From: Cyanidioschyzon merolae
Taxonomy: Eukaryota
Strand: one strand, 5' to 3'
DNA length: 64,000 nt
Assembly: GCA_000091205.1 (NCBI GenBank)
Contig: AP006488.2
Shown: positions 5,521-42,749 of the stretch, piece after piece
Numbering within the stretch: the stretch's first letter is position 1
Layout: each line of letters starts with the position of its first letter
The notes under the pieces: generated by a model
The model's database searches: none
What the model was told of the DNA's origin: nothing
The model's input: only the letters and a program-made list of their open reading frames with translations
Translations under genes and position numbers: made by a program

Positions 5521-6201
5521 ATAGGATACGAAAGGGGTTCTGCACCAGTCAAAAGTAAACGCCTCCCAGAGAAACGAGTTGCTTAGAATCTACAGGGATA
5601 GGAGAGCCTCCAGCTGCTGGTACTGTTGTCACTGCTGTCTCCGTCCGTACCACTACGAGCCTCCACGAAGTATTCTGAGGTAAGCAGCACGGGAGCGCGT
5701 CAAGCACCGCCGTCTGAGTGACGCAGATCTGCGCACGGCGCTCCCGCAACAGGACATTTCTATCATAAATGGACAAAGATATTTTGCAGCGTCTGCTACC
5801 GAGTTTCATGATGGCGCTCTCGTAATGGCAGCACAAGATAGTCGTCTACGCCGCAGTCGTATTTCAGATACCCATGCAGAGTCCAAACATCCAAAAAGGC
5901 TAATGGCGTGCCCGTCGCACATTCGGACCCGGCCTGATGTGCCCTAGTACGAAAAACTCCCTCTTTCTGCAGGCCATCTGCATATTTGTCGATGTCCAGT
6001 CTAGGGCTAAGTTTGGTGTCCAGATACCCTCAACATTGGATTGTGGGCCCCCAACCCGGACTGGAAGGTTGCGTGCATGCACGTGCGAACTATATTGTAC
6101 AACCACGTTCCTCATGGAATCAATATACCAATAACTGAAACATATTTTAGTTCTGTGTTCGCGCGCGGGGCCGTCCAGATAGCTGGCGTCAACGCAGTGG
6201 T

Positions 6202-7638
6202 TCATACTGAAGCACTTGCTGAGGCATGCGTCAAGGTCGACACCGATACCGACGCACTTGGAGACGCAGTTGCAGTCGCAATAACGGCACTCGGAGACCG
6301 TGTAGCACTAAACACCACACACTGCCTGTTGATGCACTCCTCGCCAGAGCGGCAGCAACGCACCTTGTTCACAAGGTTGTCCGAAGGCATCAGGTAGGTC
6401 CCGGACTGAACTGTAGGGTCCTTGCATACACAGAATGACGGCAACGGCACCTGTCGCTGCTGCTGCTGCTGCTGCTGTTGCACGGTATTGCTGTTGCTGA
6501 ACGGGTTTGACGTGCAGTTCTCCATCTCGGCGTTGCAGCGCTCCGGGCCGCACGGAATATACGTCGAGTTCGATACGTTGCCGGTCGTGCTGTTCAGCGA
6601 GTTCGAGACGTACCCATACGCCTGACAAACATACTCGGTAACCGGCTGGGAGCACTCGTTGCCGGGCCCCAGGCAGCAACCAGCCTCCAGACACTGCTGC
6701 GGCGGGTAGCTCGTGCGCTGCGTCCCGTGCTGCTCTCCGTAAAGGACCGTGTTCAGCAGACGCACAAACTGGTTATTGTTGATGTTATTGTTCAGCTGCT
6801 GGTTCTGATTCACCGCGTTCGTGCACGGCTGGCGCTCAAACTCGCCCACCGCGCACGTCTTCTCGGGCTGGAAGCAGTACGGGTTCGACGCAAAGTCGCT
6901 CTGCTGCTTGCCGTTCTGCACCCACTGGTTCTGCGCCTGCGAGTCGTAGCAGCAGCCCTGGGCATAGCACGTAAACTGGTTGATACCCGCGTTGCCGCAC
7001 GGCTGGCGCTGCGCTCCCGGTGACGGGCAGACGGGTACTGGTGCCTGCACCTCCTGCAGCGCTACAGAGGCCTGCGGTGCATGGTTGATGTCGTAGTAGC
7101 ACCAGGGTGCCAGGATGCCGTTCGCTGTGGGCTGCCAGCAGCATCCCGGTATCGCAGTGCACTCGTCGGGGTAGATGTAGCTCCAGCCGCAGGTGACGCG
7201 CTGCGTCACTTCAACAGCGCTGCACGCCGCTGAGACGCTCTTCAGGGTGCACGCGTTCGTCTGGGAGTTGAAGCAGCACCCGACTTGCTCGTAAGCGTCC
7301 TGGTTGATGCACTGTCCTGGAGATCCGCAGAGCTCATTGGAGCAGATGGGGGTAGGCGTCCGCGAAGTTTTTGGTGTTGGAGTAGGGAATGCTTTCCTCA
7401 ATGCAAACACATCATTGAGAAAGTCACTGCCGCTCGTGTTTATGTATCCAATTCCAACAAATACGATCGGATCAGTTCTACTAGTGTCCCAGAAAGCTGA
7501 TCCATAGCGAGTACTTGGTACACTATTCGGGCCTGACTCGCTCAATGCCCCATATACTGCTGGAGTATTCACTACCGAGCTTCCATTAATCCATACCCGT
7601 TGACCCAGTTTGATATCGAATACCCACAGATCGTTCAA
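6202..7638 (-). CDS. N-terminally truncated paralog of the Kelch protein carrying tandem trefoil (P-type)-like cysteine-rich domains and a polyQ tract; gene fragment or exon
   Basis: The 478-aa ORF has no ATG start; the first in-frame codon is TTG, preceded by a stop. Its N-terminus (NDLWVFD ... TPTPKTSRTPTP) parallels the last Kelch blade and PT linker of the 3337..5520 protein. It then carries trefoil-type motifs, for example 'CSAVEVTQRVTCGWSYIYPDECTAIPGCCWQPTANGILAPWCYYD' and 'CPSPGAQRQPCGNAGINQFTCYAQGCCYD...NPYCF'. A polyQ run (QQQQQQQQRQ) is present, encoded by (CTG)n on the plus strand. Confidence 0.45.
   Translation of the reverse strand: MNDLWVFDIKLGQRVWINGSSVVNTPAVYGALSESGPNSVPSTRYGSAFWDTSRTDPIVFVGIGYINTSGSDFLNDVFALRKAFPTPTPKTSRTPTPICSNELCGSPGQCINQDAYEQVGCCFNSQTNACTLKSVSAACSAVEVTQRVTCGWSYIYPDECTAIPGCCWQPTANGILAPWCYYDINHAPQASVALQEVQAPVPVCPSPGAQRQPCGNAGINQFTCYAQGCCYDSQAQNQWVQNGKQQSDFASNPYCFQPEKTCAVGEFERQPCTNAVNQNQQLNNNINNNQFVRLLNTVLYGEQHGTQRTSYPPQQCLEAGCCLGPGNECSQPVTEYVCQAYGYVSNSLNSTTGNVSNSTYIPCGPERCNAEMENCTSNPFSNSNTVQQQQQQQQRQVPLPSFCVCKDPTVQSGTYLMPSDNLVNKVRCCRSGEECINRQCVVFSATRSPSAVIATATASPSASVSVSTLTHASASASV
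6455..6478. repeat. (CTG/CAG)n microsatellite inside the coding region (polyQ)
   Basis: 'gctgctgctgctgctgctgttg' read directly in the sequence. Confidence 0.8.
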
Positions 7639-29242: not shown

Positions 29243-31642
29243 CTAGCGCCCCGTGCTGTGCTGCTCCAGCAGTGCTCTGCGTGCATTCTCGAGGAGTATC
29301 TTCTGCTCAACGCTTGCGATCTGTTTCCGCGTACTGATCACAGCATCAGGGTTGACACTCACGCTGTCAATGCCACAGCGAACTAAAAACTCGGTTAAAT
29401 CCGGATATACTGAAGGAGCCTGCCCGCAGATACTCACAGTGATATTGGCACGGTGGGCTTCCTCGATGAGGATGCGCATCGCGGCCTTGACTGCCGGATC
29501 GCGCTCATCAAAGTATCCCAAAGTGGCAAGCTTCGGGGAATCTCGATCCGCGCCCAGCAACAGCTGCGTTAGGTCGTTGCTACCGATACTAAATCCATCA
29601 CAGAGCTGAGCAAAATCGCGCGCGAGCAGAACAACGCTGGGAACCTCCGCCATGAGCAGAACTTTGAAGTCGGAAGCGCGCTGCAGTCCTTCAGAGCGCA
29701 TCAAGTCAAGCGCACGCTGCACCTCCCAGGTCGTTCGTGCAAATGGTAACATGGCCCAGACATTTTTCAAACCCTGCTCATCCCGAACCTGCTTCATCGC
29801 TCGGCATTCGAGGCGAAACCCGGCCTCGTACTCAGCGCTGACATAGCGCGAGACGCCCCGCCAGCCGAGCATCGGATTAGATTCAAGGATCTCGTACCGT
29901 TCGCCGCCTTTCAGGGAGCGGTATTCGTTGGTCTTGAAATCACTAAATCGGACAATGACTGGCCTCGGATAGGCAGCTTGTGCGACCATGGAAATACCTT
30001 CCGCGAGCTTCTCCACGAGCATTTCTTCCTCCTTGTTCTCGATAATGTACATGGGATGGTGTCCAACCCAGCTGGCAAGGATGAACTCGACCCGCATGAG
30101 CCCAATGCCGTCAAATGGCAGGTGACGTAGATCCTGCATTTTCTCTGGTTCACCGAGGTTCATGTAGACGCGAGTAGCCGTGATCGGCAATACCATCGAC
30201 GCGACTGCGTCAGCGGATATCCCTGCCTTGGGCGGTGTGTCCTCCTCGGCTTTGTGTACTCCGCGCAGTATGACACCCAGCGTTCCGTCCACCGTCACGA
30301 TCTGGCCGCTTCGAAGAATCTCGGTTGCTTTGCCGGTGCCAACCACACATGGTAAGCCAAGTTCACGCGAGACAATCGCGGCATGCGCAGTCATTCCGCC
30401 ACTGTCGGTGACGATGGCCGCCGCCTTTCTCATCGCTGGCACCCAGTCCGGCGTTGTCATTGATGTGACAAGCACTTCACCTGGTTGGAACTCCGATATG
30501 TTCTGGACATCAAGAAGGACTCGCACTTTCCCGTGTGCGCGCCCTGGCGATGCTCCGAGGCCACGTACCAAAACCTCGCGACGCGAGGCTGCTTTCCTGT
30601 CTGACCAGACTGTTTCGGGACGCGCTTGAAGCACATAGAGCTGGTTCTTTTCCTCATCTATGGCCCATTCAATGTCCATTGGTATTCCGTAATGCTTTTC
30701 TATGGTGAGTGCAGTTCGTAGGAGCTCCTGTATCTGTGCATCGGTGAGACACGGAGCCTCCACCAGGTCCGCTGGTACGGGTACCTCACGGGTCAGCGTG
30801 TCAGCGGATGCTGCGTCGATGCCCTGGACGCCGTCAGCGACTGCGGCTCGCACCATCATCAGCGGCTTTGAGGCAGTGTGGCGCTCGAGCACACGCCCGC
30901 TTGCCTTTTCGACCACGAAACGATCCGGTCGAACCCTGCCCTGAACGACCATCTCGCCGAGTCCCCAGCAGCACTCAATAACGATCAGATCACGCTTGCC
31001 GGTAACCGGATCCAGGGTGAAACAAACCCCCGAGACACGGCTCTGAACCATTTGCATCACACCCACACTCAGGCGCATATCCAGGTGCGGGTAGCCTTTC
31101 TCCTCCCGATATGCAATGGCGCGAGGCGAGAACAACGAGCCGTAGCATTTCTTGATATACTGGAGGATCGCATCGATGCCGTGCACGCACAGATACGTCT
31201 CTTGCTGGCCAGCAAAACTTGCCTCTGCAGAGTCCTCCGCAGTTGCGCTGCTGCGAACTGCAACCAGTGGCTCTTGCGCCCCAAGGGTTTTCACCAAGTT
31301 GCGGTACGCACTTCGAATCATCTGCTCTACGGGCGGTGGGTATGCAGCATCCTCCAACAACGCCATTATTGCCTTTGAGGCTTCCTCCAGCGAGCTGGGC
31401 GACTCTAAGTTCAGACCTTGAAGAATGGACTGAATTTTCGTGTCCAGCTTATTGAATTCGATAAAGGACTCGTACGCGGCGACCGTCACAGCGAAGCCTC
31501 GCGGGACCAAGAGCCCGAGACTCAGCAGCTCACCCAGGCTGGCGTTCTTCCCCCCAACTAAGCCTCTGTCTGTATTCCTCAAATTCTGTAGCTCCACAAC
31601 GTACTTCCCAGCGTCGTTTTCCTCGCAGTTTGTGAGCACCAT
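29243..31642 (-). CDS. ppsA: Phosphoenolpyruvate synthase (pyruvate, water dikinase), bacterial PpsA-type
   Basis: The ORF is intact over about 799 aa from M at 31642. The 852-aa track ORF starts further upstream, inside element copy 4. Blocks align to PpsA: 'DRGLVGGKNASLGELL', 'VAVRSSATAEDSAEASFAGQQETYL', 'GLGEMVVQGRVRPDRFVVEK' and 'KHYGIPMDIEWAIDEEKNQLYVLQARPETVWS'. The phospho-His motif is 'GGMTAHAAIVSRELGLPCVVG'. The C-terminal PEP-utilising domain includes 'IGSNDLTQ'. Confidence 0.85.
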   Translation of the reverse strand: MVLTNCEENDAGKYVVELQNLRNTDRGLVGGKNASLGELLSLGLLVPRGFAVTVAAYESFIEFNKLDTKIQSILQGLNLESPSSLEEASKAIMALLEDAAYPPPVEQMIRSAYRNLVKTLGAQEPLVAVRSSATAEDSAEASFAGQQETYLCVHGIDAILQYIKKCYGSLFSPRAIAYREEKGYPHLDMRLSVGVMQMVQSRVSGVCFTLDPVTGKRDLIVIECCWGLGEMVVQGRVRPDRFVVEKASGRVLERHTASKPLMMVRAAVADGVQGIDAASADTLTREVPVPADLVEAPCLTDAQIQELLRTALTIEKHYGIPMDIEWAIDEEKNQLYVLQARPETVWSDRKAASRREVLVRGLGASPGRAHGKVRVLLDVQNISEFQPGEVLVTSMTTPDWVPAMRKAAAIVTDSGGMTAHAAIVSRELGLPCVVGTGKATEILRSGQIVTVDGTLGVILRGVHKAEEDTPPKAGISADAVASMVLPITATRVYMNLGEPEKMQDLRHLPFDGIGLMRVEFILASWVGHHPMYIIENKEEEMLVEKLAEGISMVAQAAYPRPVIVRFSDFKTNEYRSLKGGERYEILESNPMLGWRGVSRYVSAEYEAGFRLECRAMKQVRDEQGLKNVWAMLPFARTTWEVQRALDLMRSEGLQRASDFKVLLMAEVPSVVLLARDFAQLCDGFSIGSNDLTQLLLGADRDSPKLATLGYFDERDPAVKAAMRILIEEAHRANITVSICGQAPSVYPDLTEFLVRCGIDSVSVNPDAVISTRKQIASVEQKILLENARRALLEQHSTGR

Positions 31643-31726
31643 TAGGTTGGCCGAATTCCAGGTCGTTTGACAGACTCCAGAAACAGAAAGAATTGAGATT
31701 GTAATCTCCGGACGTGAACGTGCTGC

Positions 31727-32707
31727 TGGCGGCCGACCCCAGAAACACAATTTCATAACCATCGCAGCACGGAAGCGTGTGGCAGATGGTACTAACGGCA
31801 CCTTACATCAGACAGACATGTGTCTTTTGAGGTTCTCGAGAGCAAGATACGATCGAGAATCCGGTATGATCAATGCAAGGAAGAAAATTGAGACATGGAA
31901 TGCAGGAATGAAGGATCACCTGCAAGCTTTGAGCGAGGTGAGGAGCCGAGGAGCGGACTTTACAGCTTTTCGGGAATTCATGGAAGTTCGCGTTGCTCAT
32001 TGGGACGCGCTGTGGGAGGATTATACAAAGCCCAGGTGGGCTCGTTTGCGAATGAATCTGTACTGTGGGAAGCAGCGGGCGTTCGCCAACTTTTTCAATC
32101 AGGTGGGCGCCCTCAAGGAGATTGAAAGTCAGAGGCTCGTCGTAGCGTACGGAGCAACGCGCTGGAAGACCCAAAAACGGGACTATGCCAGCTCCAACGA
32201 CAAGAACGTACAAGGAGTGTGCACGGCGTTTCGCTGCGATACCTGCAGATGAGTTTCGAACATCGTATACACACCACGAGCTGGGATTTACACTTCAGAG
32301 AGTCGAGATGGAAACGTGCCAACGAAGCCATGAGGAAATAGCAAACTACGGACCGCTGATGGGAGAGCAAATGGATAAGAGAGCGAAAGTTCGTGGACTA
32401 CTTGCGCTGGTGAGCGCAACCAGTGATGGCAAGAAACGTATGGTATTAGGGAACCGAGACTTTAACGCCGCTACCAATGTAAAGAGATGTACGGTGACAG
32501 AAAGAAGACCTCCAGAGTCGACAAGAGAGAACTTTGTTAGACAATCACTCAAAGTGGAACTATATGAGAAACAGTTGGAAGCAGTTGTAGGTGACCGGTC
32601 CGAAAAGGCTGGGAGGCGTCTGCACGTCAGGTGGAGACGTCGTGTCTAGGGCGTGTTTGCCACTACTGTACACCGCTGGCCGCAGCATTTTTCTTTTGAG
32701 TGGCGCT
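31727..32707 (+). mobile_element. Fanzor/TnpB-like element copy 4 (family A; 5'-truncated at the same point as copy 2; same frameshift)
   Basis: Homology starts at 'gctggcggccgacccc...catcgcagcacggaagcgtgtggcagatgg'. ORFs 31779..32252 and 32185..32649 are more than 98% identical to the copy 2 and copy 3 peptides. The conserved 3' end is '...gtctagggcgtgtttgccactactgtacaccgctggccgcagcatttttcttttgag'. Confidence 0.7.
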
Positions 32708-34745: not shown

Positions 34746-35607
34746 GAATGTGTCAGCGTGTTTGCTGCGGATCCCGGTGGGATCTGTCACGTACTCGCTA
34801 TCGTCAAGTTGCGAAGCATCCGCACATACTACTGCTATGCGCTCTGCCGTTCTGGCACCTTAACATACGCCGTTCATGCATGCGAATTGCATGCAGTCTG
34901 TCTTTTATCCAGAAGAGATCTCATCGCCATCACTGTTGCGACTCTACGGTCTTGCTGCTGAACCAAAGGCCGGCGACCTGGTATTTGCTCCAGTGCGCTC
35001 TGTGCCGTTCTCTGTCGACGAAGACAGACGCATCCATGGAGCTCGCTGTCAATTGATGCCTTCACACGAAGCTGCCTTTTGGAAGCGATGGTATGGACGA
35101 AGAGCGCTACGAGGCATCGGGATCTTGAGGAATGCACGCTCAGCGCGATTCTTGCTGAAATCCTTGCTGTTTGCGCGGAGTCTTGGTATTTGGGGCTTCT
35201 GGTGGATAGGGTTTCGCCTTTCGAGTCATTCCCCGAGGCCTGATGCTATATTCTTTCCGTGTTCTGCCATGGAAACACAAGCTCATTCTTCGTGCTATAG
35301 CAGCGATCCATATGTCTTTTGAGGGAGCCTCTTGGGCGACCGCCAAGGGAGTCGGTCGTCATACAGCACCGAGCTGAGCAAGCAGCAAGGTATTGGATGC
35401 GAGCACGAATCCACACGGCAAATAGGGAACAACGATGTGAAATTGTTCATAAAGCAGCCAAAGTGCTTCATGGTATGAATCGCTTCGGGCTAGCATAGTT
35501 AACTCAGGATGACTTCCAATACCTGCATATGCACCAGGATCGATGTAAAATGGCGTGCCTCGTGCACCTAAGGGGGAGCGCATATGTCTTTTAGTGATGT
35601 TCTTTGA

Positions 35608-35805
35608 CAATACGGACACTACCAGGTGTGTCGGGGTTCGTGTCCCATACTCATTCTCTGCGACAAGACGAACACTACCAGGTGTCTCGGGGTTCGTGTC
35701 CCATACTCATTTTCTGCGACAAGACGAACACTACCAAGCGTCTCAAGGTTCGTGTCCCATACTCGTTGTCTAGAACAATACGGACACTACCAAACGCCTC
35801 AGGGC
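35608..35805. repeat. Minisatellite, about 55-bp unit x about 3.5 ('acactaccaggtgtStcggggttcgtgtcccatactcattYtctgcgacaagacga')
   Basis: Tandem units read directly in the sequence. The units diverge progressively toward the 3' end. Confidence 0.75.
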
Positions 35806-36422
35806 AAATGCGCGGCGGCGCCTGCTGTACCCCAATCTATATGTGTTGTGGCTCGCACGTCACCGTGGACCGGAACATACCTGTCACTCACAGGAACGGG
35901 CGACGCATTGGTGCAGGTTTGGACCAGTGGACAGACACGATTATCTGCCAGATCGTGCAGACCCTGGTCCCTTAGCAGCCTTCTCTGGCAGTCAGAGCTC
36001 GCTACACTTGCGGAAACTGCTGGCCCGTTTCCGGCGATAGCAACGTCCGGACTGCGCGGTGTGCGAGCCCAAGGCCGTGAGCTGAACCTGTGCGGCTCGC
36101 TATACGCTGCGTGTACTGGAAACTCGCTCGACGCGTGTTTTCTTTGAGTCATAGCTCGGAATCGTGTTCTCTGCCTTGAACGAGCACAGGGACTAAAAGC
36201 CGATTCGGCAGCCTACAAGGCAGGATCGTCGCAGGTTTGTTCTGGGGTGCCACCGAGTGCTGGACGGCGATCTACGCACAGCGCAGTCCGCAGTGGTTAT
36301 ACGGCATAGTCGCTCTCTGTCGGTGGCCTAGAGAGACACGCATAACCAGGAAAAACCAGCGAACAGCACGTCTGCTCTCTACCGCACAGCGCAGCCCGCA
36401 GTTGTGGTAGTGGCGACGCGGC

Positions 36423-37097
36423 ATGGGGGCGTGTTTCGGAAAGCCTTCCGAAGCTGGAACCAGCGCTCGAGACGCCAGCTCAACTCGTCGACGCGGAAGC
36501 AGAGGTGATGGTGGTGGTGGTGGTGGCGGTGGCGGCGGCGGAAGGACGAACGCGCATCGCCCCGGCCAACGCATAGAGCTGCTTCTCTTGGGCTTGGATG
36601 GGGCTGGTGCAACCACCATTCTGTATCGCCTCAAGCTACAAAAGTTCATCATTACCGTTCCGACTTTGGGATCTGTAGAGGAAACCATTCGTTGGGGCTC
36701 TGAGGAAATTCTCTTCCATGACCTTGGCGGCACAGATAAACTGCGCCCGCTCTGGCCCATGTATCAGGATGGCATTCAGGGAGTCATCTACGTGGTGGAC
36801 GCTGCCGATCGCCGCCTTGTGGACGCCAACCGTCGTGAGCTGCGACGGTTCTATCGTGCTGCCGTGAAGCTCCACGACGCACCCTTGCTCATCTTTGCCA
36901 CGAAGCAGGACCTGTCTGACGCGATGACGAGTGAGGAGCTGCAGCGAGAGCTTGGACTCGAAGAAATCCCGTGCCGATGTTATCATGTCGCTGGCTGCTC
37001 GGCGGTTACAGGGGAGGGTATTCACGAAGGCATCGACTGGATCGTCGGAGAAATCCGGCGCGGAGGTTCACGGGCGGCGAGCACGTTGCGGAAATGA
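36423..37097 (+). CDS. ARF/ARL-family small GTPase-like protein with substitutions at the key nucleotide-binding residues and a poly-Gly insert
   Basis: The protein has 'MGACFGK' (N-myristoylation-type Gly2). 'LLLGLDGAGATTILYRLKL' aligns to ARF1 'MVGLDAAGKTTILYKLKL' with the P-loop Lys changed to Ala. 'DLGGTDKLRPLW' aligns to 'DVGGQDKIRPLW' (Gln to Thr). 'FATKQDL' aligns to 'ANKQDL' (Asn to Thr). 'CSAVTGEG' is the SAx motif. The tract GGGGGGGGGGGG is encoded by (GGT/GGC)n. Confidence 0.7.
   Translation: MGACFGKPSEAGTSARDASSTRRRGSRGDGGGGGGGGGGGRTNAHRPGQRIELLLLGLDGAGATTILYRLKLQKFIITVPTLGSVEETIRWGSEEILFHDLGGTDKLRPLWPMYQDGIQGVIYVVDAADRRLVDANRRELRRFYRAAVKLHDAPLLIFATKQDLSDAMTSEELQRELGLEEIPCRCYHVAGCSAVTGEGIHEGIDWIVGEIRRGGSRAASTLRK
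36504..36542. repeat. (GGT/GGC)n trinucleotide repeat encoding a poly-Gly tract
   Basis: 'ggtgatggtggtggtggtggtggcggtggcggcggcgg'. Confidence 0.8.
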
Positions 37098-38160: not shown

Positions 38161-39027
38161 ATGGTTTGCAAACGCTCGCCCAAACGAGCCGTATCTTCGG
38201 GTTTCATAGGAATCTCTCTATCTGTATCGCGTATTCAGTCTGTAGTACGCCAAACTTTACAGAGAACTTCGTGGCTGCCTAAAGCGACGAACAACAGGTT
38301 CGCTCGCGACGATGGGGCAACAACGGTGCAACGGCGCTGGCGGCGACGGGGACCGCGTCCGCATCAGCCGCAGTCCCCCTGCGCCTTGATTACGAGCAGC
38401 TTCAGCGTGGTAGGTGTTTCCCAGGCGGCAGCGGGCCAGCACTTGGCCTATGCCTTCGGGGTGAGTCTGCCGCCGACAATGTTGGCCTGGTTCGGAAGCA
38501 CTGGCACGAGCATGACGACGGAGTTTGACGGCGCGAACTCGCTAACGCCGGTCGTGTGGGTACTAGGTGCGGTCGCTGGCCTTGTGGTATCCCACTTGGC
38601 GCAGCAGTCTCCAGCAGCAGTCCGGAAAGCGTGGCTCCGGTTCATTCGAGGTGCGGACGCTCGAGAGGCGAACCCAACTTGTCCAGCGTGCGAGGGCGAG
38701 GGCTCCATCGACTGTCTCTGCCAACGCTGGCGGGTGCCTGACGCCAGCAGCGACAGTTCAGAAAGCAGAAGCGAGCCAAAGGGGCCCCTTCAAAAGGCTT
38801 CGCGGGGTTGGAACCTCTTCTCAAAGAGCAGGACAAGGGTCGCGTTGACAAAGAGCACCTGCTCTCGCTGCCACGGAACAGGACGTGAGCCATGTCCCCG
38901 CTGTGGCGGTGGGGGCATGCTCGTGCACAGCGACGAGGCGTCGCTCCGAGGCGACACCGTGCCCGTGCACCTCGAGGATGGATATGACTGGGAGCGAGCT
39001 GCACGGCTGAAGCGAGACTCGAGATGA
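38161..39027 (+). CDS. DnaJ-type zinc-finger (CxxCxGxG) domain protein with a long N-terminal extension (possible organellar targeting)
   Basis: The ORF encodes 288 aa from an ATG. Its C-terminal half contains 'CPACEGEGSIDC' and 'CSRCHGTGREPCPRCGGGG' (CxxCxGxG repeats). The N-terminus is rich in Ser, Arg and Ala. Confidence 0.5.
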   Translation: MVCKRSPKRAVSSGFIGISLSVSRIQSVVRQTLQRTSWLPKATNNRFARDDGATTVQRRWRRRGPRPHQPQSPCALITSSFSVVGVSQAAAGQHLAYAFGVSLPPTMLAWFGSTGTSMTTEFDGANSLTPVVWVLGAVAGLVVSHLAQQSPAAVRKAWLRFIRGADAREANPTCPACEGEGSIDCLCQRWRVPDASSDSSESRSEPKGPLQKASRGWNLFSKSRTRVALTKSTCSRCHGTGREPCPRCGGGGMLVHSDEASLRGDTVPVHLEDGYDWERAARLKRDSR

Positions 39028-41996: not shown

Positions 41997-42749
41997 ATGT
42001 GGGTATCGGGCATTGCGTTGTGCACGGTAGGCAATATGAGTCGCGGCTCGTTCAACTGTCAGCGGGTTGGGGTCCTGCTCAGCGCTGGCAGTTTCTCGCC
42101 CCCGACACTGATGCACCTGCTCTCTCTCGAGCAAGCTCGCGAGTACGTTGAAAATACTTTGCATCATCCAGTTTGGAAAGGGTTTCTCTCACCAGTGCAC
42201 GACGCTTATCAGAAACCTGGTCTGGTGGCGGCGAAACACCGGCTACAGATGTGTGCGCTCGCTGTGAAAGACTCGGACTGGGTCCAAGTCGATGCCTGGG
42301 AAGCCCAGCAACCCTGCTACTCTCCGACGTTTCAGGTTGTGCAGAGCCTGCGAGAACGTTTGGAGGCCCAGCGACGCCTGCCTGACCCTGGTCCGAGTGT
42401 TTTCCTTGTTTGTGGTGCTGATCTCGTTGCCTCGATGAACAATCCCAGTATCTGGCCTGTTGAGCACTTGCAGAAACTATTCGCGCTCTGTGAGGTGGTG
42501 GCGCTTCCACGCCCTGCTCTCGATGCAACTGACGAAGAAGCACTAGAACGGGTCCTAAGACAATATCCTGCTGCAATCCATTACTGGAAAGACGCACCCG
42601 TCCAGTGCAATATCTCATCGACGCTGGTACGCGAACGCGTCGCACATGGGCGCTCGATACGCTACCTCACGCCCCGTGCCGTGGAGAACTACATCTGGGA
42701 GCACGGATTATATAGACAAACAAACCCTAGTATTGAATCCGCCCAATAA
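41997..42749 (+). CDS. Nicotinamide/nicotinate mononucleotide adenylyltransferase (NMNAT)
   Basis: 'LLSAGSFSPPTLMHL' is the (H/T)xGH-type motif. 'ISSTLVRERVAHGRSIRYLTPRAVENYIWEHGLY' is the ISSTxxR / SIRYL C-terminal motif. The ORF encodes 250 aa, and the start is possibly the internal 'MSRGS' at 42036. Confidence 0.75.
   Translation: MWVSGIALCTVGNMSRGSFNCQRVGVLLSAGSFSPPTLMHLLSLEQAREYVENTLHHPVWKGFLSPVHDAYQKPGLVAAKHRLQMCALAVKDSDWVQVDAWEAQQPCYSPTFQVVQSLRERLEAQRRLPDPGPSVFLVCGADLVASMNNPSIWPVEHLQKLFALCEVVALPRPALDATDEEALERVLRQYPAAIHYWKDAPVQCNISSTLVRERVAHGRSIRYLTPRAVENYIWEHGLYRQTNPSIESAQ

Follow-up and report, generated by a model that had tools for sequence, protein, structure and literature searches.

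Within a 64,000-nucleotide stretch of Cyanidioschyzon merolae DNA (the window), one reading frame encodes a small GTPase of the ARF family in which the P-loop Lys, the catalytic Gln of switch II and the Asn of the NKxD box are all replaced. The question raised by this locus is whether such a protein is a dying gene copy, a membrane anchor that has stopped binding nucleotide, a GTPase that still cycles with help from a partner, or an adaptor that still holds GTP. An earlier note on this DNA had proposed either a pseudo-GTPase with a nucleotide-independent role or a recently decaying duplicate.

Identity of the locus and state of its G boxes

The 224-aa reading frame exists exactly as the earlier note had described it (Table 1), and the strings quoted there (MGACFGK, ILYRLKL, DLGGTDKLRPLW and DWIVGE) are all present. 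The product is 100% identical to C. merolae 10D XP_005535694.1 by exact-sequence look-up, and to CmeArlRhodo in the supplement of PMC8358228. As the look-up shows C. merolae nuclear DNA, bacterial or phage readings of the window were set aside. Its assignment to the ARF/ARL family was borne out by a Pfam scan (PF00025 Arf, E=7.9e-46; score 156 bits, cutoff 22.3; profile positions 12 to 172 out of 174). The closest solved relatives are ARF6 and ARF1 (E~1e-41, 42-45% identity), and the best PDB matches are all ARF/ARL. ArlRhodo was described as a red-alga-specific ARF-family paralog, CmeArlRhodo included, by Vargová et al. 2021 (Genome Biol Evol 13:evab157, PMC8358228), whose supplement gives seven ARF-family genes in total for C. 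merolae. The locus is already catalogued: gene and family are known and are not a discovery in themselves. In the literature that was searched, the family name was used only by these authors, the main text of their paper is silent on the missing P-loop Lys and Gln, and nothing specific to the ArlRhodo protein was found in the literature on C. merolae Arf biology.

Table 1. Features of the ArlRhodo locus, in positions of the window.
Feature	Coordinates	Strand	Basis and remarks
Complete single-exon CDS, C. merolae ArlRhodo (XP_005535694.1 / BAM79408.1)	36423..37097	+	224 codons and stop; ORF list, Pfam Arf, exact-sequence look-up
Acylation motif MGACFGKPS: Gly2 predicted N-myristoylated, Cys4 predicted S-palmitoylated	36423..36449	+	Conservation and published predictors
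Disordered Gly/Ser/Arg-rich linker, residues 10-44, in place of the amphipathic N-terminal helix of canonical ARFs	36450..36554	+	AF2, pN/pS
GGT/GGC trinucleotide repeat encoding G-D-G11 (poly-Gly)	36504..36542	+	TRF period 3/6/9, codons read
Arf-type G domain, residues 45-213	36555..37061	+	Pfam residues 48-209, AF2, Foldseek, pN/pS
G1/P-loop GLDGAGATT	36591..36617	+	Ala63 codon 36609-36611 replaces the invariant Lys; Thr64 and Thr65 kept
Switch I ITVPTLGSVEET	36651..36686	+	Mg-binding Thr81 (ARF1 T48) kept; PTLG is the family signature; ARF1 F51/N52 replaced by Ser/Val
G3/switch II DLGGT	36720..36734	+	Thr104 codon 36732-36734 replaces the catalytic Gln; Asp and Gly-Gly kept
G4 ATKQD	36897..36911	+	Thr160 codon 36900-36902 replaces the Asn; Lys161 and Asp163 kept
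G5 CSA (C192-S193-A194), kept	36996..37004	+	Invariant in four close orthologs; aligns with ARF1 C159-A160

An antisense ORF on the minus strand (36272-36760) was rejected; it is the poly-Pro mirror of the Gly repeat, overlaps the conserved CDS and has no gene support.

Alignment with ARF6 and ARF1-numbered alignments confirmed the three substitutions. The P-loop reads GLDGAGATT where ARF6 has GLDAAGKTT (Lys to Ala at A63), switch II reads DLGGT for DVGGQ (Gln to Thr at T104) and G4 reads ATKQD for ANKQD (Asn to Thr at T160); the canonical GxxxxGK[ST], DxxGQ and NKxD are all absent. The earlier note had counted the guanine-specificity residue among the three losses. Three residues are indeed substituted, but in NKxD it is the Asp that sets guanine specificity, with the Asn in support, and this Asp is retained as Asp163.

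Ten variants from the same species cluster, environmental or reference, carry A63, T104 and T160. A sequencing or assembly error as the source of the odd residues, which the earlier note had kept in view, has next to no chance of being right: the same residues recur in nine independent environmental variants besides the GenBank reference protein, and again in independent assemblies of other species. Nor are the substitutions chance noise, since the P-loop Lys is near-constant in the ARF family. Among 269 ARF-family sequences collected, it was found in 264 of 272 P-loop-like motif matches, and the eight exceptions include six ArlRhodo-type sequences and one spurious N-terminal match.

Selection and distribution across red algae

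A recently decaying duplicate, or a pseudogene left open by chance, would accord with the disappearance of three canonical motif residues and the insertion of a low-complexity repeat. This reading is refuted by the selection and distribution data, and we give it practically no credence. Orthologs from Cyanidiococcus, Cyanidium and metagenomes have the same Lys-to-Ala and Gln-to-Thr changes. The gene order PPDK ... Arf, a CxxC protein of 277-288 aa, glutaredoxin and cytidylyltransferase is common to the window, Cyanidiococcus and two metagenome contigs, which places the gene in synteny with intact orthologs in three other Cyanidiophyceae lineages. In the ortholog comparisons, synonymous sites are saturated (pS 0.67-0.81 against pN 0.06-0.25, NG86), and for the G domain, with pN of 0.07 beside saturated pS of 0.67-0.76, the pN/pS ratio is 0.10-0.11 against Cyanidiococcus and the metagenome ortholog L005. 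This is the purifying selection for which the earlier note had suggested looking. The duplication is not a recent one, as CmeArf1, the closest paralog in this genome, shares only 41% identity with the protein. Furthermore, the same substitutions are found across Rhodophyta: Lys to Ala, Ser or Thr together with Gln to Leu, Val or Thr occurs in Galdieria, Porphyridium, Chondrus, Gracilaria/Gracilariopsis and many transcriptome and metagenome sequences. As the Lys and Gln losses are common to Galdieria, Porphyridium, Chondrus and dozens of further red-algal sequences, they are ancient. ArlRhodo is kept by selection across red algae and is not a decaying copy.

The Asn has another history. The earlier note had looked to orthologs with the canonical Lys, Gln and Asn as evidence against its reading; in close orthologs a canonical residue was found for the Asn only (ANKQD in Cyanidium), never for the Lys or the Gln. 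The NKxD Asn is kept in the Cyanidium, Galdieria, Porphyridium and Chondrus orthologs, and its change to Thr is seen only in the Cyanidioschyzon/Cyanidiococcus lineage. Further traits set this lineage apart from most ArlRhodo proteins: the Gln position holds Thr where they have Leu, the disordered linker is longer and contains a poly-Gly microsatellite, and ARF1 F51, N52 and W66 are changed.

Membership in ArlRhodo had been assigned to CmeArlRhodo by Vargová et al. from similarity alone (PMC8358228). Reciprocal BLAST was rejected as a membership test, being too weak to separate ArlRhodo from Arf1 for the divergent Cyanidioschyzon lineage: against the Galdieria set, GsuArlRhodo scored 142 bits and GsuArf1a 137, a marginal gap of 5 bits. 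In an NJ tree, the four close orthologs came together at 100% bootstrap and all 11 ArlRhodo proteins at a moderate 73%, while a grouping with Arf1 received 0%. In addition, membership is supported by derived signatures, GLDG[AS]G[AST]TT and PTLG, common to the C. merolae protein and to ArlRhodo, which also share the MG..C N-terminus and the restriction to Rhodophyta. When a profile made from the four close orthologs was run against 1.84 billion representatives, only the Cyanidiococcus cluster rose above the canonical-ARF plateau, followed by fused or double ARF gene models, and no new relatives were obtained. The family was recovered only by a profile that also took in other ArlRhodo proteins; its named matches (Porphyridium, Gracilaria, Gracilariopsis, Erythrolobus and Galdieria-like) are consistent with a restriction to Rhodophyta. 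The reading frame is a functional gene, present once in C. merolae and orthologous to ArlRhodo; we regard its identity and orthology as shown, and a clade with all other ArlRhodo, apart from the ancestral ARF paralogs, as probable.

Family-wide counts were made on 57 ArlRhodo-type proteins without the P-loop Lys. The Lys position holds Ala, Thr or Ser in 54 of them. In 56, another residue stands in place of the catalytic Gln, mostly Leu (47), and Thr at this position marks the Cyanidioschyzon/Cyanidiococcus/Cyanidium group. By analogy, the Leu can be regarded as the natural equivalent of the laboratory "Q71L" lock. Around these positions the pocket is almost constant (ARF1 numbering): T31, T48, D67, G70, K127 and D129 are 100% conserved, G24, G29 and T32 98%, N126 is kept in 51 members (89%), and Leu occupies position 49 in 56 of the 57. 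Since nucleotide and Mg contacts other than the Lys, the Gln and N126 are conserved at 98-100%, against a median of 60% over the G domain, the pattern argues that the nucleotide pocket of ArlRhodo is still in use. Conserved "ligand" residues could also serve fold stability or partner binding instead. As to a compensating basic residue in cis, no Lys or Arg position specific to the Lys-less members was found; R75 and R99 are conserved in ordinary ARFs as well.

N-terminal anchor, linker and predicted fold

The anchor MGACFGKPS is identical at 9 of 9 residues in Cyanidiococcus and in L005, despite the saturated synonymous sites; the Cyanidium ortholog begins MGACC, and MG with a Cys within the first eight residues is found in 45 of 69 family members. 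The PROSITE N-myristoylation pattern is G-{EDRKHPFYW}-x(2)-[STAGCN]-{P}, and we take the Gly2 of MGACFGK, as read off the sequence, to fit it. Published predictors also called CmeArlRhodo myristoylated, with a palmitoylated C4 (Vargová et al., PMC8358228). Together, motif and conservation point to a dual acylation of ArlRhodo, in which Gly2 would be N-myristoylated and Cys4 S-palmitoylated.

Behind the anchor, residues 2-40 have AF2 pLDDT below 50 and a Gly/Ser/Arg-rich sequence of low complexity, with no helix predicted; the amphipathic N-terminal helix that couples GTP binding to membrane insertion is absent from the AF2 model. The linker has a pN/pS of ~0.7, with only 7-10 of 26-31 residues identical to the orthologs, and it is nearly missing in Cyanidium. 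The earlier note had described a 12-Gly insertion. The trinucleotide repeat is there, with 11 consecutive Gly (residues 30-40); including G28, which precedes D29, gives 12 Gly in 13 residues. The run is 4, 8, 10 or 11 Gly long in environmental variants from the same 90% cluster. The tract is a GGY microsatellite of variable length, and the linker around it is disordered and evolves almost neutrally.

The G domain was modelled by AF2 with pLDDT mostly above 90. Its best Foldseek matches are the GTP forms of ARF1, ARF6 and ARL1 (rmsd 1.3-1.7 Å, TM 0.91-0.95), among them "ARF1 delta17-Q71L, GTP form", and GDP forms fit worse (4.1-4.4 Å). The model is nearer to this engineered ARF1 than to the wild type. 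A GTP-like AF2 conformation may merely reflect training bias and the absent helix. The protein shares with ARF1/ARF6 (e.g. 4kax, 1o3y, 9qpq) the fold, the Gly2 myristoylation motif, T31, T48, D67, G70, K127, D129 and the effector-pocket residues W78/Y81. It differs from them by the missing amphipathic helix and an additional predicted palmitoyl-Cys, and from ARF1 by K30 to A, Q71 to T, N126 to T, F51 to S, N52 to V and W66 to H.

Readings of the function and their meaning

The explanation that we favour, with about an even chance of being correct, is that the functional ArlRhodo protein is a constitutively membrane-tethered, hydrolysis-dead Arf-like adaptor that binds guanine nucleotide weakly. 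An N-myristoylated Gly2 and an S-palmitoylated Cys4, set on a flexible linker of ~40 residues, would hold it at the membrane, and it would dispense with the GTP-controlled amphipathic helix of ordinary ARFs. Canonical GTP hydrolysis would be blocked by the Thr in place of the catalytic Gln, and from the motif changes its loss is likely. As the P-loop Lys is missing, phosphate binding would be weak and exchange fast, with the remaining nucleotide and Mg ligands preserved. Guanine nucleotide, mainly GTP at cellular concentrations, would be loaded without a GEF, and the protein would stay in a permanent "active-like" conformation, offering its invariant switch I/interswitch/switch II face to a putative effector. 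We expect such GEF-free loading and such a locked state since the Gln and the Lys are lost and the other ligands are preserved. Control would be exerted by acylation and de-acylation and by the protein level instead of a GEF/GAP cycle; the Asn-to-Thr change in NKxD would be a later, lineage-specific weakening, and the poly-Gly a neutral microsatellite within the linker. From these features we infer the acylation, the nucleotide loading, the lack of cycling and the adaptor role.

The missing Gln and the conserved pocket are consistent with a class II pseudoGTPase (GTP bound, catalytically inactive), in the classification of pseudoenzymes defined in PMC12722892. Rnd1-3 and RhoH, which belong to class II (PMC12722892), and RhoU/RhoV/RhoB (PMC13236570) have likewise lost a catalytic residue and are controlled by lipidation or expression instead of a GEF/GAP cycle, as proposed here for ArlRhodo; they differ from it in being Rho-family proteins with an intact P-loop Lys. 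RhoU/V and RhoB are precedents for palmitoylated, constitutively active atypical GTPases (PMC13236570).

A different reading is a class I pseudoGTPase, which would bind no nucleotide and act purely as a lipid-anchored protein-interaction module. Its model is ArlEM of the Eumicrosporea (BMC Biol 2026, PMC13393502), a conserved putative ARF-family pseudoGTPase retained despite genome reduction; it shows that acylated ARF-family pseudoGTPases exist, and like ArlRhodo it is lineage-specific, its P-loop is disrupted and its N-terminus is predicted to be acylated. The reading is favoured by the absence of the P-loop Lys from all close orthologs and, in the Cyanidioschyzon lineage, by the additional loss of the NKxD Asn and the altered switch-I/interswitch residues (ARF1 F51, N52, W66). 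However, ArlEM has mostly degenerate G boxes, with deletions in some members, and AF3 did not place GTP in it (PMC13393502), whereas ArlRhodo keeps all G boxes save two or three single residues; the origins are independent and the eukaryotes unrelated. In addition, T31/T32, T48, D67, G70, K127, D129 and the SA motif are invariant family-wide, far above background conservation, and the confinement of the Lys replacements to small residues (54/57) resembles a constrained pocket rather than drift. We consider class I possible and somewhat unlikely. Of the pseudo-GTPase with a nucleotide-independent role put forward in the earlier note, the loss of hydrolysis probably stands, and the nucleotide independence fits poorly with a pocket that is apparently used.

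The protein might also still be a cycling GTPase, its missing catalytic and phosphate-binding groups being supplied in trans by a partner or a GAP, possibly as a Lys/Arg finger or a bound cation. In Rap, a Thr (T61) occupies the catalytic Gln position and RapGAP supplies an Asn; Thr104 mirrors this arrangement, and the strict conservation of the remaining pocket would be compatible with partner-dependent catalysis. Against this, 47 of the 57 Lys-less members have Leu at the Gln position, the classic hydrolysis block that locks ARF1/ARF6 in the GTP form, and the helix that would link a cycle to membrane binding is absent from the AF2 model. Cycling with such help appears improbable.

Tight nucleotide binding almost always requires the P-loop Lys, so that a function free of nucleotide keeps some likelihood, above all in the Cyanidioschyzon lineage. 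In the IRGM "GMS" immunity-related GTPases, a vertebrate-specific group with regulatory roles within the large, dynamin-like IRG family, the P-loop is GX4GMS instead of GX4GKS. IRGM and ArlRhodo both have a conserved natural replacement of this Lys in an otherwise intact G domain, by Met in the former and by Ala, Ser or Thr in the latter.

What is added here is that the odd residues are no peculiarity of C. merolae but a state conserved in most of a red-algal ARF family. Genes of this alga can be targeted by homologous recombination and, with seven ARF-family genes, the function and biochemistry of ArlRhodo could be settled with modest effort. If ArlRhodo still binds GTP, it would challenge the indispensability of the P-loop Lys in small GTPases and would be a natural Arf in which dual acylation has replaced the membrane switch. 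In its boldest form, which we put forward tentatively and judge unlikely, the proposal is that in a pan-rhodophyte ARF lineage the guanine-nucleotide pocket already worked without P-loop Lys and catalytic Gln before the red algae radiated and still does, the phosphate being held independently of the Lys, and that membrane attachment has moved from the GTP switch to a myristoyl/palmitoyl anchor. If this were true, the phosphates would be held through GTP loading of low affinity and without a GEF, through a bound cation or through a Lys/Arg finger of a partner, and ArlRhodo would represent a natural "delta17-Q71L-like" Arf, a mechanistic class new among small GTPases.

Identity and motif residues of the ARF-like protein

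An exact-sequence look-up identified the ORF product as BAM79408.1 / XP_005535694.1 of C. merolae strain 10D, named "small GTP-binding protein of Sar1/Arf family" in GenBank. Vargová et al. 2021 (Genome Biol Evol 13:evab157; PMC8358228) list the identical sequence under the name "CmeArlRhodo" (Supplementary dataset 1), so that both the gene and its family are already known. ArlRhodo was defined there as a red-alga-specific ARF-family paralog which originated before the rhodophyte radiation and whose affinity to any ancestral ARF paralog was not resolved by its authors; its hallmark is a pair of predicted lipidation sites, myristoylation on an N-terminal Gly and palmitoylation on a Cys close by (PMC8358228). 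C. merolae possesses only seven ARF-family genes, Arf1, ArlRhodo, Arl1, Arl2, Arfrp1, Sar1 and SRβ (PMC8358228). Within the literature library searched, the name ArlRhodo was used by no other paper.

The ARF-family assignment made in the earlier note was correct: Pfam Arf (PF00025) matched residues 48-209 (E=7.9e-46), and ARF6 and ARF1 were the nearest solved structures (E ~1e-41, 42-45% identity). Motif residues were read from the HMMER alignment against ARF6 and from an ARF1-numbered MAFFT alignment, which confirmed the three substitutions already noticed: ARF1 K30 is replaced by Ala63 in G1 (GLDGAGATT), Q71 by Thr104 in G3 (DLGGT) and N126 by Thr160 in G4 (ATKQD). The P-loop Thr-Thr, switch-I Thr81, Asp100, Gly103, Lys161, Asp163 and the CSA G5 motif are retained. 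The Asn of NKxD is indeed replaced, but the guanine-specificity residue of this motif is the Asp, which is present. In the ARF1-numbered alignment, the P-loop Lys was kept in all six other C. merolae ARF-family proteins. CmeArfrp1, taken from the supplement of PMC8358228 and encoded outside the window, aligns INRLH..Q at the NKxD position of other ARF-family proteins, and may be a second C. merolae member with a degenerate G4 motif.

Features in and around the ArlRhodo locus (window positions)
Feature	Position	Strand	Remarks
Pyruvate phosphate dikinase (PPDK)	29243-31801	-	PPDK_N E=1.8e-111
56-bp tandem repeat	35606-35792		3.3 copies, 88% matches; ~630 bp 5' of the ArlRhodo ATG
Antisense ORF	36272-36760	-	162 aa, over the 5' half of ArlRhodo
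20-nt direct repeat, CGCACAGCGCAG[T/C]CCGCAGT	36275-36294 and 36383-36402		108 bp apart, directly 5' of ATG 36423
ArlRhodo ORF	36423-37097	+	ATG start, 224 residues
GGT/GGC repeat coding Gly tract	36504-36542		GGY microsatellite in disordered linker
CxxC protein	38161-39027	+	288-aa ORF; three CxxCxGxG motifs, DnaJ-type zinc-finger-like
Cytidylyltransferase-like protein	41997-42749	+	flanking gene

Conservation of the locus and of the family

Orthologs of ArlRhodo were found in Cyanidiococcus yangmingshanensis (75% identity), Cyanidium caldarium (67%), a metagenomic relative (contig L005) and several environmental C. merolae-like variants. On L005, the true ortholog ORF (5890-6552) opens with MGACFGKPS, 111 nt upstream of the JGI gene model; this model (P0003, 183 aa) begins at an internal Met, and the acylation motif is consequently missing from the annotation. 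The order Arf, CxxC protein (277-288 aa), glutaredoxin and cytidylyltransferase-like gene is common to the window, Cyanidiococcus and metagenome contigs, and the CxxC ORF, the downstream neighbour of ArlRhodo, had no Pfam match at E<=0.001. PPDK lies upstream of ArlRhodo in both the window and Cyanidiococcus, and its presence near the Cyanidiococcus ortholog together with the cytidylyltransferase-like gene indicates local synteny; the latter gene is near the Cyanidium ortholog too.

Among the orthologs, synonymous sites were saturated (pS 0.69-0.81) against a pN of 0.06-0.25 (Nei-Gojobori). When computed per region versus Cyanidiococcus and L005, pN/pS was ~0.10 in the G domain (residues 45-213) and ~0.7 in the linker (residues 10-44), and the acyl anchor (residues 1-9) was identical at 9/9 positions. 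The gene is maintained by selection, with anchor and G domain constrained but the linker not. Together with the conserved neighbourhood, these values refute the proposal of a decaying duplicate. Sequencing error was likewise ruled out as the source of the substitutions, as all three are carried by ten variants of the 90% cluster. In all close orthologs, without exception, the canonical Lys is replaced by Ala and the canonical Gln by Thr. The Cyanidium ortholog keeps the canonical ANKQD, which makes the Asn-to-Thr change a younger one, limited to the Cyanidioschyzon/Cyanidiococcus lineage.

The four close orthologs were united by 100% neighbour-joining bootstrap and all ArlRhodo by 73%, and the close orthologs never grouped with Arf1. 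Since BLAST barely separated GsuArlRhodo of Galdieria (142 bits) from GsuArf1a (137 bits), membership of the divergent lineage rests on the tree, the GLDG[AS]G[AST]TT and PTLG signatures and the acylation motif.

Motif states of published ArlRhodo proteins
Protein	G1	G3	G4
Galdieria ArlRhodo	GLDGSGATT	DIGGL	ANKQD
Porphyridium ArlRhodo1	GLDGSGSTT	DLGGV	VNKND
Chondrus ArlRhodo 1	GLDGSGTTT	DVGGL	ANKQD
Chondrus ArlRhodo 2	GLDGAGATT	DIGGL	ANKQD
Porphyridium ArlRhodo2a-c	Lys kept	DVGGS	ANKQD

Seeding a profile search with the published sequences recovered ~65 more cluster representatives. All derive from red-algal genomic, transcriptomic or metagenomic data, Porphyridium, Gracilaria, Gracilariopsis and Erythrolobus among them. 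Residues were counted on a non-redundant alignment of 57 members without the Lys and thirteen with it. In the Lys-less members, the Lys position holds A 28, T 16, S 10, G 1, R 1 and Q 1, and the Gln position L 47, T 4, V 3, M 1, S 1 and Q 1. T31, T48, D67, G69/G70, K127 and D129 are 100% conserved, G24, G29 and T32 reach 98% and N126 89%, against a G-domain median most-common-residue frequency of 0.60. Ser occupies the Gln position in 13/13 Lys-keeping members. Loss of both the P-loop Lys and the catalytic Gln is family-wide, with the remaining pocket residues under constraint. Judged from 269 ARF-family proteins, the Lys is essentially invariant outside ArlRhodo (264/272 P-loop-like motif matches, six of the eight exceptions being ArlRhodo-type). 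P0260 (329 aa), which carries an EF-hand-like extension at its N-terminus, has an otherwise canonical Arf domain with GLDAAGTTT (Lys to Thr) and normal DVGGQ and NKQD; it is an unrelated case of P-loop Lys loss in the ARF family.

The poly-Gly tract and upstream repeats

The insertion described as 12 Gly is encoded by a trinucleotide repeat, as had been stated, but the run comprises 11 consecutive Gly, or 12/13 when G28 before D29 is included. Its length is 4, 8, 10 or 11 among closely related environmental variants; unrelated Gly/Ser-rich sequence takes its place in Cyanidiococcus and L005, and the tract is absent from Cyanidium. Replication slippage, in a spacer that need not have a precise length, is the best explanation. 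The antisense ORF showed no sign of being a gene, its poly-Pro run being simply the Gly repeat read on the opposite strand. Further upstream, the 56-bp repeat lies in otherwise non-coding sequence and is the source of repeated peptide strings in several spurious ORFs. The 20-nt direct repeat may act as an element of the promoter or of the 5'-UTR.

Predicted structure and possible mode of action

The AlphaFold2 model of the C. merolae protein, built from a 50-sequence alignment, had a mean pLDDT of 81, with the G domain mostly >90 and residues 2-40 disordered (<50); no N-terminal amphipathic helix was predicted in it. GTP-bound ARF1, ARF6 and ARL1 complexes ranked top in Foldseek against the PDB (rmsd 1.3-1.7 Å, TM 0.91-0.95), "ARF1 delta17-Q71L, GTP form" being among the best matches; GDP-bound ARF1 structures gave 4.1-4.4 Å. 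This GTP-like fold is consistent with a protein devoid of the helix that stabilises the GDP conformation, but it carries little weight because AlphaFold2 may default to a GTP-like state.

The earlier suggestion of a pseudo-GTPase with a nucleotide-independent role holds in part: loss of hydrolysis is very probable, but the conservation pattern gives no support to nucleotide independence. Myristate and palmitate would tether ArlRhodo permanently to the membrane through the flexible linker, and canonical GTP hydrolysis would be impossible; the Leu found at the Gln position in most relatives is, according to PDB structure titles, the residue that locks ARF1/ARF6 in the GTP form in experiments. 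Guanine nucleotide would be bound at reduced affinity with fast exchange, and the protein would therefore be GTP-loaded without a GEF. Since G4 is functional in the TKxD form in dynamin and SRP-type GTPases, the Asn-to-Thr change need not abolish guanine binding. The invariant surface formed by switch I, interswitch and switch II would be offered to a putative effector, and control would come from reversible palmitoylation or from protein abundance, a mode of regulation proposed for atypical Rho GTPases that are palmitoylated (PMC13236570).

We give this membrane-tethered, non-hydrolysing, weakly guanine-nucleotide-binding protein with an effector-facing switch surface about an even chance of being correct as a whole. 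Its main rival, a class I pseudoGTPase that binds no nucleotide, similar to ArlEM of microsporidia (PMC13393502), appears rather doubtful; most G boxes are degraded in ArlEM but not in ArlRhodo. By analogy, a partner could instead complete the active site, for which Rap/RapGAP is a precedent; we regard this minor alternative as improbable.

Neither the P-loop nor catalytic residues nor degenerate motifs are discussed in the main text of PMC8358228. The remaining interest of ArlRhodo lies in the ancient, family-wide loss of the P-loop Lys from an otherwise intact pocket, which is an experimentally tractable question.
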